In this document: one piece after another, positions 34,801 through 40,154 of the stretch | Numbering within the stretch: the first letter of the stretch is position 1 | Layout of the letters: each line of letters begins with the position of its first letter | Origin: a virus | Lineage: Duplodnaviria > Heunggongvirae > Uroviricota > Caudoviricetes | IMG/VR virus record: IMGVR_UViG_2531839523_000012 | Coordinates: 1 to 40,154 of that record | Direction: 5' to 3' (one strand) | DNA: 40,154 bases | Made by a program: the position numbers

Positions 34801-37800
34801 ATTTCTCTGATGCCGGTTCTCCTTTTATTTCTATGGGAGGGTGTAATAAATATGTGGCAACAACCCAGAGGAAAATCATTTCAGGCTTCCGTTGTGGCGC
34901 TGATGGAGATGTTCAGGCCGTATGTAATGGTGAATTATCTGTTGCGGCAAAAACAACATGGACTTCAATTGTTCCACGGGCAGTATTGCGAATTGGAGGG
35001 CAGGGCACTAATGGGGAGTATCATCTTTTTGGTCATATCCGTAATCTGCGTATCTGGCATAAAGAATTAACTGATGCGCAAATGGGGGAGAGTATTAAAT
35101 GAAAGATTTAACACTCAAATTTGCAGACAGGGCCGACTTTTCGGCCTTTATGGAGAGTATTGGCTATTATGATGACGAGTCGATGCAGGATGATATTCTT
35201 ATTGACGTGATAGGTAACGTGTACAAAGAAACCGGAGAACTGACTGAAGATGGCGAACCGGTATGTGTTAAGGAAGACGGATATTTTGTAAACGTGCGCA
35301 TCATTAATGATGCAAAAAAATCGTCAATATTCGATAAATACGCGGTTGTTGTTGAGCATCAACTTCGTGGCTGGATGTGAGGGAGACAAATGGCTACATC
35401 GACAGTAATTCCAGGAGATATCACCACGCTAAAGGGAGATGTCAGTAAAACTAAGGAAGATATTTCCTCAATTAACGGAAAAGTATCAACGCTTCAGACT
35501 GATATGACCAGTACAAAGCAGGATATCAGTACCAGATACACAAAAACTGAAGTTGATAATAAGCTGAAAAACAAACTGGAAGTGAATGCTCTGGAAAGCG
35601 GTAATTATGGTGGAGATTTTTACCCGCTGACTGGTCGTGAAGCATTTTATTTATGGAATTTGGGCACGACTACAGCGGCGGCAAACCTTTATCTTAATCC
35701 TGACCCTGCAATTTCGTCTGTACTGCGGTCAACATCGTCTATTCGCTATAAACATTCAGTAGAGACGATAGATTCAGAGCACGCCGATCTCATTTTCAAG
35801 ATGCGCCCTGTGTGGTACAGGTCGCAATGCGAAAATGACAGGCGCGATTGGGGATTCTATGGATTGATTGCCGAGGAAGTAGGAGAAATTGCCCCTCAGT
35901 TTGTTCACTGGCGACCAGCTAACGAAGATGATGCACCGGAAACCATTTCCAGCAATGGCCTTGTTGCCGAAGGTGTAATGTACGAACGTCTGGTTGTTCC
36001 ACTGATTCACCATATCCAGAAACTGACTGAAAGAGTTGATGAACTTGAGTCAGAATTAAAGTTGTTATCAACTTCCTGAAGCGATATCGGATAAAGGAGG
36101 AGTAATGGATATAAGCCCCTTACTTCATGCGCTTTGTGCTGTGGCTGCGCAGATACTGGTTGGTCTTTTTACCGGAAACTGGGCTTACGGAGCGATAGCT
36201 GGTTGTACGTTCTTCATTGCGCGTGAACACACCCAGGCAGAATATCGCTGGATTGAAATGTTCGGACATGGCAAGCGTATGAATATGCCGTGGTGGGGCG
36301 GTTTTGATCCGCGCGTGTGGGATGTGGCAAGCCTGATGGATTTTGCTGTGCCGGTGGTGGCGTGTCTGCTGATCTGGCTGTTGATCAGTTAAATATAAAA
36401 AGCCGCAGTAACTTGCCATGGCAGGATACTGCGGCTGGTTTGTGAGTTTAAATAGTGTGTTTATTGCGGTATATTTAAAGGACTTAATGGATTACATATC
36501 TATGATATTCCTGAAATATCCTCTTCAAGCTCTTTTACTGATTTCGCAATTTTAAATTTAAACTTCCTCTCTATTTCACTATTGCTAAGTTTTTTTTCCT
36601 TCTCTTTACCTATCCACATAGAAACAAGTTCTCGTTTCTGAGATATATGTAAATTATCAAAGTTAGGTATGTATTTAAAAGCCTCCGCTCTACCTCTGCG
36701 GAGTTCATAGAAAGTTTTAATCAAAGACTTTGGTTTTATTTCTGATGAAAGGCCGAATCGGCGGATAAGATTATTGATAGTATGATTAACAGAGCGAAGT
36801 TGAGCTGTTGAGGTTATTTGTGAGAAGTACGATACCCATCCCAATCGTTTACCTTCAAACACACATCCCGTAATTCTGAGATTTAGTTTCCACTGACAAT
36901 ATGCAACAGCTCGTTCTTTATCACGCTTACTTTTAGCTTGTAGTAGAGCGTGCCTGTATGCAGTAAAAATCCTTGCTAAAGATGACTCAAATCTAAGAAT
37001 GCTCTCATGTTTTATCAATAATTCTCGATTTTCTATGTGGTATCCCAAAAAGTTAAAACTTTCATCCAAGCTGCCTACCTTGGATTTTGAGTTCTCTTCA
37101 TTTAATGGATGTGGGTTTAAATTTAATGATTGAAGCTTATCAATGATATGAGAAGCTATTTTTGTTGCTTGATATTTTGGTGTTAAAATAAGAATGTCAT
37201 CAACGTATCGCATGTACCATATGTCATGCATTTTATTGATTTCATCATCAAAATTAGATAGTGATATTTCAGCTAAAATATTTGATATCGCTAATCCCTG
37301 AGGTACTCCTCTGGTATTATTCGGGATACCTTTGCTTCCTGTTGCTCCACTTACAGTAGGCACGATTAATGATGATGTTATTAACTGTCTAATTTCTTTT
37401 TTTCTAATTTTATTTCTTATTGCATTAATTATCAATTTATGTTCAATTGAAGGATAGAAACTTTTAAGATCTATTTTTGCATATTCAGCATAAAGACTGC
37501 TGTTTAATGCTTCTTTCAATGAGTCAATTACTGTATGTGGTAGTTTTAATCTGGAGTTAGGATATATTTCCGTAAGGCATTCACAGAGAGCTCTAAGAGT
37601 AATTCTGTCCCTAGCAGTTGGTATGGAAATCTGTCTGGGTGTAGAGTTAGCGCCTTTAGATATTAATTTTTCTTTATATGCTGTAAATTTGTAATTGCCA
37701 GAGTTAACCTTTTCAAAAATGAAAGTGATCTCATTTTTTATTGTCAAATCAAGTTTTGATGGGCGAATCCGATCTATGCCAATCGCTCCTGATTCTTTGA

Positions 37801-40154
37801 TTTTTTCAGTGTATACTTTTAGAAGTTTTTTTTTCGAGAATGACTTTTTAAAAATTCTGCTTGCAGTCATAGTCAATCCAAAGATATATTAATGGGAGTA
37901 TATAAAGGGCGGCAGTAGTAAATATTCGAAGTAATATCCATAAAATAACAATTATTTTTTCTTTTTGTGTGGGGATCCTCGTCGTAAGTCCAACTTGAGT
38001 TACCCTTGAAATTTTATCATCTATGTCACGGTGATTCTCAACCTCATTGAGCAAATTAAAATATTTTTCTTTCTGTTCAAGAGTTAACTGTTGACTGGTG
38101 GTAATGTCAAAATAGAGTCGCTGTAGTGCAATATAATTCCTTCTCATGGCTATTGCTCGACCACGAAAATCTAGGTTAGATACGATCAGAGAAATACCCA
38201 GTAGGGCCACCGAAAGTATTGCCGCAACGATATCTGTATTATCTCCTAGAACTTTTGGAAATCGCAACGTTACAATTGAAAGTACCGCACTCAATATAGC
38301 ATACCAAACGAGGATAAATTGAGAGTGCTTTTCAAGCCATTCTAGTCGATGGTGCGCTTGGATACGGGCTTTATATGTAAACCAAATATTGTCATGCATA
38401 AAAGATCCTTTTTAAAAGCGGAAGGGGCAGGATATATTGGAATCATTGAACATCCTGCCCGGCAGGATCAGTGAGCATAAGCTCAACAGTAAAATATTAC
38501 TGTTCATTATCAGAGCCGCCCTTGCATGCGCAAGAGGAAAAACCTGCCCCATCCTTTTGAATTATTACAATTTAATGATCTTAAAGTCAATACAAGCGAA
38601 TGGTGTCCAGAGATGATGAACTTAATGAACAAACCACTCGTCAGCAAACTCCCAAGTATCTTTCAGAGTCTCCTGAACAAAAGCCTTAGCAGAATCCTTA
38701 TCTGCGGTGTACGTAACAGGAAAATCATCGCTATGGTAGCTTTGACGCTCACCCCCATACCATAAAATATCAAGAGATTACGACTCATTTCCCCATGACT
38801 CTTCACCAACCAACAGTTCTATCAACATAAGATGTAAACTCATAAACTAAGCAAGATAAAAAAATTAACAGAATTTTGTTGATTTCATATCTGTGGAGTG
38901 TTAACTTAAAATGAGACCTGAAGTACTGAAGGTCTTTGACACACTGGAGAAGCAACTATGTTAACGCCGTTTGGTAAGACAGTAAGAAAAATGCGCATAG
39001 ACTTGGGGCTTACGCTTAAAAGCATGGCTGAGGCTATGGGCATGACCTCGTCTTATCTTTCAGCGATCGAAACTGGTAAAAGGGCGGTCACTAAGCCCGT
39101 GCTTGATAGCATCATTAGCTATTTTAATGCGGATGAAAAACAAAAAGAAAAGCTTATCAGTGCAGCTCGTGACTCTCAGCAGTCAGTAGAGATCAGCTTG
39201 TCAGGTAAGAATGGCCACGCTCGTGAAGTCGCAATTGCGTTCGCTCGTAGTTTTGATGAATTAAATGAAGAAGACTTCCGTAATTTACGACAGATTTTGA
39301 ATCGAAAACAGCAGTAGGAGGCGGCTTGAGCGGACAAGATTATCGTGTACCTCCGCAGAATCGTGAATCAATACGTTCTATCGTCACATCTCTGCGGAGC
39401 GCATTTGGTATTACTGGGCTTAAATTCCCTGTAATGGAGGTAATTGAGTTCGCATTGCCTCAGTTGATCCCGGATTTTGAGTTCCACATTGGTGGTATGA
39501 AAGAAATGGGAGAAACGCATGGTCTTACGTACCCACAGGAACATTTATTGATTCTGCGCGAAGACATTTACGAAGGCGCTTTGAATGGGGTAGGGCGAGA
39601 TAGGATGACTGCCGCGCATGAATTGGGTCATCTTCTTATGCACAGGAACATCGCATTTGCTCGTTCTGCCCCAGGGGTAAAAATCCGCCCTTTTGAGAGT
39701 AGTGAATGGCAAGCTAAATGTTTTAGTGGTGAGTTATTAGTGCCGGCTATGCATGCCAGTATTTTAAAAGGTATGACGGCTGAGGATGTTGCTAAGGCAT
39801 GCGGAGTTTCATTAGTGGCAGCGCGTTATCAGCTAGACAGAATGTAAAAACCCCTTGCTTGGCGCCAACCAGTGCAAGGGGCTTTAGGTGATGAATCCAA
39901 GAGGCATCACCACCGTGAACAGCTTCGATAGACAGCCTGAAATTAACACCTTCAGGGAAGATGTTCAAGGGAAAAATCTCTCTTGGTAAGGAGGTGTTTT
40001 ATGAATGGGTTTGAAATCAATTGCTTCAAAAGCGGCGCCCAAAGGGTTCCGTTGGGTTTTCTGCCGTTACCGCAAGGTGCGTGGGAAATCAAAAAAAGTC
40101 CTTGATGCTCATGATTACGGGTACGAGGCGTGGGCATTTTTAGTGCGCTGCTAA

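Follow-up and report, generated by a model that had tools for sequence, protein, structure and literature searches.

The minus strand of the window (the whole 40,154-nt stretch of viral DNA analysed here, IMG/VR record IMGVR_UViG_2531839523_000012) very probably carries, at 36467-38621, an intact anti-phage DRT10 system of the Eco3DRT10 type. DRT10 comprises a UG17 reverse transcriptase (RT), a SLATT protein and a non-coding RNA (ncRNA), and is the subject of two preprints (Tang et al. 2025; Sanchez-Nieto et al. 2026), according to which every one of the three parts is needed for defence. It is an already characterised defence system, and the locus in the window is a further natural copy, not a new system. 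The original prediction of an RT-based defence module, made up of an RT, a membrane effector and a leader RNA, has been borne out by the matches to RT_UG17, SLATT_5 and the DRT10 ncRNA. Its statement that no nameable system matches was wrong; the locus is DRT10/UG17 and agrees with the Eco3DRT10 type even in its template. Of the block proposed at 36400-39890, the defence call stands but the four-gene reading does not, the XRE and ImmA genes being a separate segment of the prophage end. The block was rightly described as AT-rich, with a GC content of 0.32-0.41 between 36 and 39 kb, compared to roughly 0.5 in the rest of the window.

Table 1. Features of the DRT10 locus and its neighbourhood (window coordinates)
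Feature	Position	Strand	Description
Hairpin + U-tract	36396-36436	-	Likely SLATT-RT terminator; 18-nt inverted arms
DRT10 RT (UG17 clade)	36500-37870	-	456 aa from ATG; RT_UG17 full-length, RVT_1, YVDD
SLATT_5 membrane effector	37848-38399	-	183 aa; RTasSLATT and SLATT_5 matches
DRT10 ncRNA	38418-38554	-	137 nt; basal stem, four small stem-loops, 20-nt template loop
Template A-B-A'	38436-38448	-	CAAU (nt 107-110), GAUUC (111-115), CAAU (116-119)
ncRNA promoter	38561-38590	-	TTGACT, 18-nt spacer with TG, AATAAT; predicted start ~38554
dinI-like 3' fragment (pseudogene), outside DRT10	38622-38732	-	Pfam DinI, RefSeq
XRE-family HTH protein (ImmR/CapH-like), outside DRT10	38958-39317	+	119 aa; HTH_31, HTH_3
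ImmA/IrrE-type M78 metallopeptidase, outside DRT10	39326-39847	+	173 aa, HELGH, peptidase domain only
Hairpin after ImmA stop codon	39851-39884	+	Candidate XRE-ImmA terminator; inverted repeat

The profile searches proposed for both proteins, against Pfam and PADLOC, identify the RT as RT_UG17 and the membrane protein as RTasSLATT/SLATT_5. The RT matches PADLOC RT_UG17 (E 3.6e-158, 524.9 bits) over residues 3-458 and over the whole profile (1-429 of 429), compared to 124.9 bits for the second-best PADLOC model, Drt3a; its assignment to the UG17 clade of UG/Abi RTs is a profile match. Pfam detects RVT_1 alone, in agreement with the predicted lack of maturase, endonuclease and nitrilase domains, and the expected core motif YVDD is found at residues 222-225 in the 456-aa numbering. 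The protein ends in ...EEDISGIS, its last residue being Ser456, and a C-terminal serine is present in 117 of 120 RT homologs. In Eco3DRT10, S456 is the published priming residue (Tang et al. 2025, PMC12632851).

The 458-aa open reading frame predicted at 36500-37876 (minus strand) exists and begins with a TTG at 37876, but the likely start is the ATG at 37870, because RefSeq annotates this codon and close homologs are 456 aa long. The exact 456-aa protein is present in NCBI (e.g. EMW26286.1), and an exact protein look-up of the 458-aa form found none on record. The Eco3DRT10 record is itself annotated 2 aa too long, such that its S458 corresponds to S456 (Tang et al. 2025, PMC12632851), and the same start-codon issue recurs in the window RT.

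That the RT is a member of some other class, be it retron, group II intron, Abi or DRT3, with the upstream RNA acting as an msr/msd or intron RNA, has a virtually negligible probability. Some sources call its homologs ‘retron-type RT’, and there are partial matches to group II RT/maturase (TIGR04416, 142.4 bits), Drt3a (111-125 bits) and retron St85 (58.5 bits) models, but these lie below the curated cutoffs of 300, 200 and 235 bits, respectively, and far below the 524.9 bits for RT_UG17, and all three classes were rejected. A scan of 35800-40154 against Rfam 15, which does not include the DRT10 ncRNA, returned a chance microRNA match only (E 0.43) and neither group II intron nor retron RNA. 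A group II intron RT with its intron RNA, an outcome the original prediction had itself considered, was thus found neither by profile nor by Rfam. The upstream RNA instead shows the architecture and template of DRT10.

The gene upstream of the RT encodes the small multi-pass membrane protein that had been predicted, with three hydrophobic segments in its hydropathy profile (approximately residues 27-47, 55-77 and 149-171). It matches PADLOC RTasSLATT (E 7.9e-57), Pfam SLATT_5 (E 4.8e-28) and NCBIfam SLATT_5 (132.9 bits, cutoff 60), and an identical protein occurs on 970 contigs. The overlap with the RT gene is present as predicted, but measures 23 nt from the ATG start, not 29. SLATT-RT pairing is found in 15 UG17 loci from six lineages, and close relatives appear in the UG17 locus table of Tang et al. 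(PMC12632851).

The 550-bp leader predicted upstream of these genes does hold the DRT10 ncRNA and its promoter, but it is not a single leader; it is a composite of four pieces, namely the ncRNA, the promoter, a dinI fragment and the region upstream of the XRE gene (38754-38957). The ncRNA has a minimum free energy of -56.1 kcal/mol (z -4.9) and is conserved in seven genera, while its flanks diverge. The seven share one consensus fold, in which 10 of 34 pairs show compensatory changes. The window RNA agrees with each of the eight published coordinates that were compared (U15, U62, U64, U110, C116, A117, U119 and the 137-nt length). The template lies in the 20-nt loop after SL5, and CAAU-GAUUC-CAAU has one exact match in the window against 0 expected by chance. 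This stretch, CAAUGAUUC followed by CAAU (nt 107-119), matches the reverse complement of the Eco3DRT10 cDNA repeat exactly, in the published A-B-A' layout, and specifies a 9-nt repeat, GAATCATTG, the same as that published. Homologous ncRNAs retain CAA...CAA, with predicted periods of 9-11 nt. The promoter is the top promoter-like site of the region (10 of 12 matches), and its -35 TTGAC is retained in most aligned genera. An independently transcribed ncRNA has been demonstrated in a UG17-A homolog (Sanchez-Nieto et al. 2026, bioRxiv 10.64898/2026.04.29.721553).

The template, the ncRNA coordinates and the start-codon issue together point to identity with the lab-tested Eco3DRT10 allele (RT accession OKX54664), a likeness of features and not a residue-for-residue alignment. 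The shared features include a UG17 RT that is 456 aa long, contains YVDD and ends in S456 (Tang et al. 2025, bioRxiv 10.1101/2025.10.16.682844), overlapping SLATT and RT genes with a 137-nt ncRNA upstream of SLATT (PMC12632851), the identical template and repeat, poly-U tracts at U15 and U62-U64, and the same 2-aa misannotation. The window locus may nevertheless be a separate allele inside the same 90% cluster (954 members) as Eco3DRT10. Its SLATT-RT order and Pseudomonadota host fit the description of UG17-A, a tentative subtype call made from these two features only. The UG17-A DRT10 of Escherichia sp. E3659 is comparable in its order ncRNA-SLATT-RT, in an ncRNA that is transcribed independently and cannot do without its basal stem, and in its tandem-repeat cDNA. 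It differs in its 143-nt ncRNA, drawn with six stem-loops, its 7-nt repeat and its shorter genes, the RT gene being 1338 nt long (~445 aa) (Sanchez-Nieto et al. 2026).

Among the 5,426 complete genomes of E. coli, 188 (about 3.5%) contain the core of the locus (RT, SLATT, ncRNA and promoter; 36500-38600) at a minimum of 90% identity; the core had no match among 50,697 phage records. DRT10 appears to be cargo of a lambdoid prophage, carried at its tail-distal end in a segment that abuts prfC in related genomes. The boundaries of the cargo were mapped by comparison with prophages that do not carry DRT10, which match the window sequence up to 36438-36466. At the other side, the DRT10 homology shared between genomes stops at 38753, while homology to intact dinI begins at 38622 and is lost past 38753. 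The remnant in the window matches positions 40-63 of the 63-position Pfam DinI profile (E 2.8e-4), and RefSeq annotates it in strain 510016 as a DinI-like pseudogene with its N-terminus missing. By this comparison, the dinI fragment is the boundary at which the DRT10 cargo, on its right side, meets the left side of the XRE/ImmA segment. Elsewhere, DRT10 usually lies directly downstream of an SOS-boxed dinI gene, in the same orientation.

Both hairpins of the original prediction (36401-36436 and 39851-39884) exist as inverted repeats; they were folded directly, a consensus terminator scan having flagged neither. On the minus strand the left hairpin (36436-36401) folds with -21.3 kcal/mol (z -4.5) and is trailed by UUUUUAUAUUU, which makes it credible as the terminator of the SLATT-RT operon. 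The full 36396-36436 feature is likely to be the intrinsic terminator of this operon and may terminate in both directions. Read from the sequence, it is part of the prophage backbone and not of the cargo. The right hairpin (-21.2 kcal/mol, z -2.5) has a weak U-tract. The proposal of one terminator-bounded unit at 36400-39890 is not supported, since the left hairpin is backbone and the right one is the candidate terminator of the XRE-ImmA operon.

The plus-strand genes predicted at 38958-39317 and 39326-39847 are both present as open reading frames. The XRE protein matches Pfam HTH_31 and HTH_3. The ImmA protein has HELGH, in line with the HEXXH metallopeptidase that had been proposed, and its sole Pfam domain is Peptidase_M78 (E 2.3e-9, residues 72-170). 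Together they have the make-up of an ImmR/ImmA-type pair: an XRE HTH protein and a small HEXXH M78 peptidase, both above Pfam cutoffs, at a prophage end. The right end of the prophage consists of a variable cargo slot adjoining a fixed XRE-ImmA segment. The alternative cargo (an 84-aa + 311-aa Vpar_1526 pair), a 49-aa ORF and a 95-aa ORF gave no defence-family match in a PADLOC scan.

It is very unlikely that the four genes make up a novel RT system under regulation, with the XRE repressor and the ImmA-type protease controlling the divergent SLATT-RT operon as CapH and CapP do with CBASS. The arrangement itself invites this reading: the pair is adjacent to SLATT-RT and divergent from it, shows weak matches to PADLOC capH (E 3.6e-10) and capP (E 7.7e-11; profile positions 56-147 of 242 only), and three separate assembly contexts (L025, L026 and L029) show the same DRT10-dinI'-XRE junction. 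Moreover, ssDNA, a product of DRT10, activates proteases of the CapP type. However, the XRE-ImmA pair is missing beside the core in 187 of the 188 DRT10-bearing complete E. coli genomes, and none of the 15 UG17 loci has an M78 peptidase neighbour. The pair is also separated from DRT10 by the dinI pseudogene fragment, the ncRNA retains its own conserved promoter, no minus-strand promoter is predicted in 38600-38957, and such regulators are absent from both DRT10 preprints. The claim that these genes are divergent regulators of the RT operon is thus not supported, and the XRE/ImmA genes are best read as an ImmR/ImmA-like segment that belongs to the right end of the prophage, separate from DRT10 and not a component of it.

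An assignment to a CapH/CapP module was likewise rejected. CapP consists of a Zn peptidase, a central HTH-like linker and, at its C-terminus, a domain of the GAF type, and ssDNA binds between the peptidase and GAF domains. As in CapH/CapP and ImmR/ImmA, an XRE-type HTH gene in the window is followed by a HEXXH M78 peptidase gene, but the 173-aa product has the peptidase domain only, with no central HTH and no GAF, the domain that makes half of the CapP ssDNA groove. The window peptidase is not a CapP, and is closer in size to ImmA; B. subtilis ImmA is about 170 aa long. Unlike CapH/CapP, a constant neighbour of the immune operon that it represses, the XRE-ImmA segment has no consistent link to any single immune operon: it lies beside DRT10 or the Vpar_1526 gene pair, without cargo, by a decayed prophage or by an integrase.

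In the prophage lineage of the window, the ImmR/ImmA-like segment has taken the place of the SOS-boxed dinI promoter that is normally found directly upstream of DRT10, and a narrower proposal is that it became a new input to the system. If so, this input could act via read-through transcription into ncRNA-SLATT-RT or, alternatively, the ImmA-type protease could respond to DRT10 ssDNA in a feedback loop. Such an input is highly improbable, as nearly all of the evidence speaks against it.

The conserved promoter at 38590-38561 is placed so that it would start the 137-nt structured ncRNA, and is followed by the SLATT_5 gene, the overlapping 456-aa RT gene and, past the RT stop codon, the hairpin with its U-tract. 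By analogy with the published near-identical and related systems, the RT would bind the ncRNA and use S456, the serine at its own C-terminus, to prime DNA synthesis, copying the 9-nt template CAAUGAUUC just after stem-loop 5. The nascent DNA would then re-anneal to A', the downstream CAAU, and copying would start over in a telomerase-like manner, yielding long single strands of (GAATCATTG)n DNA that are covalently attached to the RT. The published experiments were done on Eco1-3DRT10 and the E3659 system. In this published work, synthesis is constitutive, with host ExoI (SbcB) holding the products in check. Infection may alter the amount or state of the repeat DNA, for instance via a phage SSB-like protein, and the altered DNA may release or activate SLATT, such that the cell is stopped or killed before phage release. 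The SbcB dependence and SSB-like trigger were shown in the E3659 system, not in the window allele (Sanchez-Nieto et al. 2026), and the preprints contradict each other on the direction, up or down, in which cDNA changes upon infection (Tang et al. 2025; Sanchez-Nieto et al. 2026).

The practical value of the analysis is in annotation: the ncRNA, template, promoter and cargo boundaries can now be labelled at the window locus, and the XRE/ImmA genes should be kept out of any list of DRT10 components. Like DRT9 (UG28) and telomerase, DRT10 works from a short template that resides in a separate structured RNA, with synthesis that is protein-primed or proceeds by repeat addition. Its ncRNA is reported to resemble that of DRT9, and the A-B-A' layout parallels the template and alignment region of telomerase. 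DRT9 differs in making poly-dA from a poly-U template with tyrosine priming, while telomerase extends chromosome ends and is far larger; neither has a SLATT partner. DRT10 is a compact RT, telomerase-like and protein-primed, whose tandem-repeat DNA serves phage defence, and it has been linked to the origin of telomerase (Tang et al. 2025, PMC12632851).

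The window carries DRT10, a known defence system made up of a UG17 reverse transcriptase (RT), a SLATT membrane protein and a small template ncRNA. A full-text literature search for UG17 together with SLATT returned two preprints, both of which name the system DRT10. The original prediction of a real defence module with the logic of an RT, an effector and an RNA is borne out by matches to RT_UG17, SLATT and the ncRNA; its view that the module fits no nameable system is superseded, as DRT10 is already named, dissected and common.

The PADLOC model RT_UG17 spans the whole RT (E 3.6e-158, 524.9 bits), the second-best PADLOC model being Drt3a at 124.9 bits, and RVT_1 is the sole Pfam domain in the protein. 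Assignment as a group II RT/maturase, Drt3a, Drt2 or a retron was rejected on NCBIfam scores, all of which lie far under the cutoffs. The membrane protein, which has three hydrophobic segments, is recognised by the model for RT-associated SLATT proteins (E 7.9e-57) as well as by SLATT_5 in both Pfam and NCBIfam. An ORF check confirmed the positions of the four predicted ORFs, and the block is indeed AT-rich (GC 0.32–0.41 versus ~0.5 in the rest of the window). The RT ORF lies where predicted, but the length of 458 residues does not stand: since RefSeq begins the protein at the ATG of position 37870 and its close homologs have 456 residues, the RT is 456 aa long and overlaps the upstream gene by 23 nt. 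Homologs of 454–457 aa are numerous in Enterobacterales and Pseudomonas. The RT ends in ...EEDISGIS, its final residue being S456, and 117 of 120 RT homologs likewise have a C-terminal serine.

Coordinates of the main features of the block
Feature	Position	Strand	Remarks
RT	36500-37876	-	ORF; TTG start at 37876 gives the 458-aa form
Membrane protein (SLATT), 183 aa	37848-38399	-	overlaps RT gene
Template: CAATGATTC then CAAT	38448-38436	-	sequence match
ncRNA promoter: TTGACT, 18-nt spacer with TG, AATAAT	38590-38561	-	best promoter-like site in region
XRE HTH protein	38958-39317	+ (divergent)	
Metallopeptidase with HELGH (ImmA)	39326-39847	+ (divergent)	

Three E. coli UG17 operons have been shown to protect against BASEL phages, and the RT, the SLATT protein and the ncRNA are each needed for this (Tang et al. 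2025, PMC12632851). In the tested E. coli type, Eco3DRT10, the ncRNA is 137 nt long and lies upstream of SLATT, the C-terminal serine S456 of the RT is the priming residue, and the product consists of single-stranded tandem repeats of GAATCATTG of kilobase length; repeat addition needs the A-B-A' pattern of a 20-nt template loop that immediately follows a stable stem-loop (Tang et al. 2025, PMC12632851). In the record of the Eco3DRT10 RT, OKX54664, the annotated protein is longer by two residues than it should be, its S458 being the S456 of the paper (Tang et al. supplement). UG17 has been divided into subtypes UG17-A, -B and -C, and the DRT10 ncRNA is transcribed independently (Sanchez-Nieto et al. 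2026). On changes in cDNA level upon infection the two groups report opposite results.

The window matches this description closely. Its template, laid out as A(4)-B(5)-A'(4) as published, is exactly reverse-complementary to the repeat reported for Eco3DRT10, and the match is single in the window, where none is expected by chance. From the position of the promoter, transcription of the ncRNA is predicted to start at ~38554. Folding the 137 nt from this point gives a basal stem, four small stem-loops and a template loop of 20 nt (-56.1 kcal/mol, z -4.9), and every published Eco3DRT10 ncRNA coordinate fits numbering from ~38554: U15 and U62 lie within poly-U tracts, U64 ends its tract, U110 is base four of A, and C116, A117 and U119 fall within A'. 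The difference between the TTG and ATG starts of the RT equals the two-residue difference reported for OKX54664. NCBI contains the exact 456-aa RT, and 970 contigs carry the exact SLATT protein, while a lookup of the exact 458-aa form among recorded proteins gave no match; the locus is therefore described as a natural Eco3DRT10-type allele and not as a proven identical copy. Rfam 15 has no entry for a DRT10 ncRNA family.

The same arrangement is conserved across genera. SLATT and RT are paired in all 15 loci examined from six lineages, and the non-coding stretch upstream of the pair is never shorter than 246 bp. When the 200 bp upstream of SLATT are aligned from seven genera, a block of ~137 nt is conserved and its flanks diverge; RNAalifold recovers the same ncRNA architecture, in which 10 of 34 pairs show compensatory changes. 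Within the template loop, CAA...CAA is kept and the spacer varies (columns 159-180 of the cross-genus alignment A2; loci L006-L020), reading CAACGGUUC in Xenorhabdus, Klebsiella and Photorhabdus, CAACGGUUCU in Pectobacterium, CAAUAAGUAUU in Morganella and CAACGGUACU in Pseudomonas. Read from this alignment, cDNA repeat periods of 9, 10 or 11 nt are predicted, depending on genus.

The core of RT, SLATT, ncRNA and promoter (36500-38600) is present at full length and at least 90% identity in 188 of 5,426 complete E. coli genomes. The usual order, as in IHE3034, is tail fibre, 95-aa ORF, RT, SLATT, ncRNA, intact dinI-like gene and prfC. Because sequence common to prophages without DRT10 runs up to 36438-36466, and dinI homology restarts at 38622, exactly at the dinI stop codon, the DRT10 cargo is placed at ~36467-38621; by this comparison the left boundary hairpin belongs to the prophage backbone. 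Both predicted boundary hairpins are present. The left one folds strongly on the minus strand (-21.3 kcal/mol, z -4.5) with UUUUUAUAUUU directly behind it, which makes it a credible terminator of the RT operon; the right one folds more weakly (z -2.5).

In this usual context an intact dinI-like gene (L001, IHE3034, 8223-8530) lies directly upstream of DRT10 in the same orientation, with two LexA-box-like sites, CTGTGTTTGTATACAG and CTGTATGAATAAACAG, upstream of it. The stretch that leads from the stop codon of dinI to the promoter of the ncRNA showed no obvious terminator, and SOS-driven read-through from the dinI promoter into ncRNA-SLATT-RT is conceivable there. The window has no CTG-N10-CAG site at 38400-39000, the dinI promoter having been lost. 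On the tail side, the last tail-fibre gene is succeeded by a 95-aa hydrophobic ORF (36105-36392), to which neither Pfam nor PADLOC assigns a family; matches to its region number in the hundreds among E. coli prophage copies, with or without DRT10. A 735-aa tail-fibre ORF (32895-35102) contains imperfect repeats over a long Ala/Ser/Thr-rich stretch, for example KTSETNAKSSQTAAKTSETNAKASETAA. Its counterparts in relatives are listed by RefSeq as partial genes or as pseudogenes, a sign that recombination may be frequent at this gene.

The divergent XRE and ImmA genes had been proposed as regulators within the same module (36400-39890), and this part of the proposal did not hold. Homology to the common DRT10 context ends at 38753, within dinI, leaving between core and pair a 3' fragment of dinI (38622-38753) that is annotated as a pseudogene in strain 510016. 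That strain is the only complete genome, one of the 188, in which the pair adjoins the core, and an M78 peptidase neighbours none of 15 diverse UG17 loci. On the minus strand, no promoter is predicted in the interval from XRE to the ncRNA promoter. The segment 38754-40154 occurs in 13 complete genomes; at its other sites it adjoins a decayed prophage or is flanked by yejO and a prophage integrase, and no RT is close by. In the assemblies compared, the 49-aa ORF region, dinI and prfC always come after the exact ImmA protein, whereas the slot to the left of XRE-ImmA varies, being empty or holding either an 84-aa and 311-aa Vpar_1526 pair or DRT10. The XRE/ImmA genes are thus best described as an ImmR/ImmA-like pair of the prophage right end, outside DRT10, and their pairing with it is an accident of neighbourhood. 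In the window the ImmR/ImmA-like segment stands upstream of DRT10 in place of the dinI promoter with its SOS boxes; that it became a new input to the system in this way is very improbable.

Several further features may be recorded. XRE, ImmA, the 49-aa ORF and dinI form a fixed right-end segment of prfC-integrated prophages (38754-40154; compared loci L023-L032). ImmA has 173 aa and matches the capP profile over the peptidase part only; identity with CapP was rejected, as the protein is without the GAF domain that makes half of CapP's ssDNA groove. A plus-strand promoter is predicted at 38884-38912 (TTCATA, 17-nt spacer, TAAAAT). Behind it, and shortly before the XRE start codon, comes a near-palindrome of 22 bp, AGACCTGAAGT/ACTGAAGGTCT (38914-38935), which is a candidate autoregulatory operator of the XRE protein. 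The basic 49-aa ORF (40005-40154), whose final base is also that of the window, has a good Shine-Dalgarno sequence, GGAGG, and travels with the XRE/ImmA segment; neither Pfam nor PADLOC gives it a family, and in relatives it is annotated as hypothetical (WP_023277296.1). The 84-aa and 311-aa pair (Pfam Vpar_1526, PF28206) has no PADLOC match and may be uncharacterised cargo or a defence candidate. In strain 510016, IS1 interrupts the SLATT gene (L002 9835-10628; also L029) and inactivates the effector; this single case may indicate that DRT10 carries a fitness cost in that background.

Judged by sequence, every part of DRT10 is present and intact in the window: promoter, ncRNA, template, SLATT, an RT with YVDD and S456, and terminator. 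If the system works as established for the Eco3DRT10 type, the RT–ncRNA complex would constitutively synthesise (GAATCATTG)n ssDNA by serine-primed repeat addition, and RT, SLATT and ncRNA would be jointly required for defence (Tang et al. 2025, PMC12632851). As in a related homolog, ExoI (SbcB) would restrain toxicity, and a phage SSB-like protein, the trigger in that homolog, would be needed for activation (Sanchez-Nieto et al. 2026).
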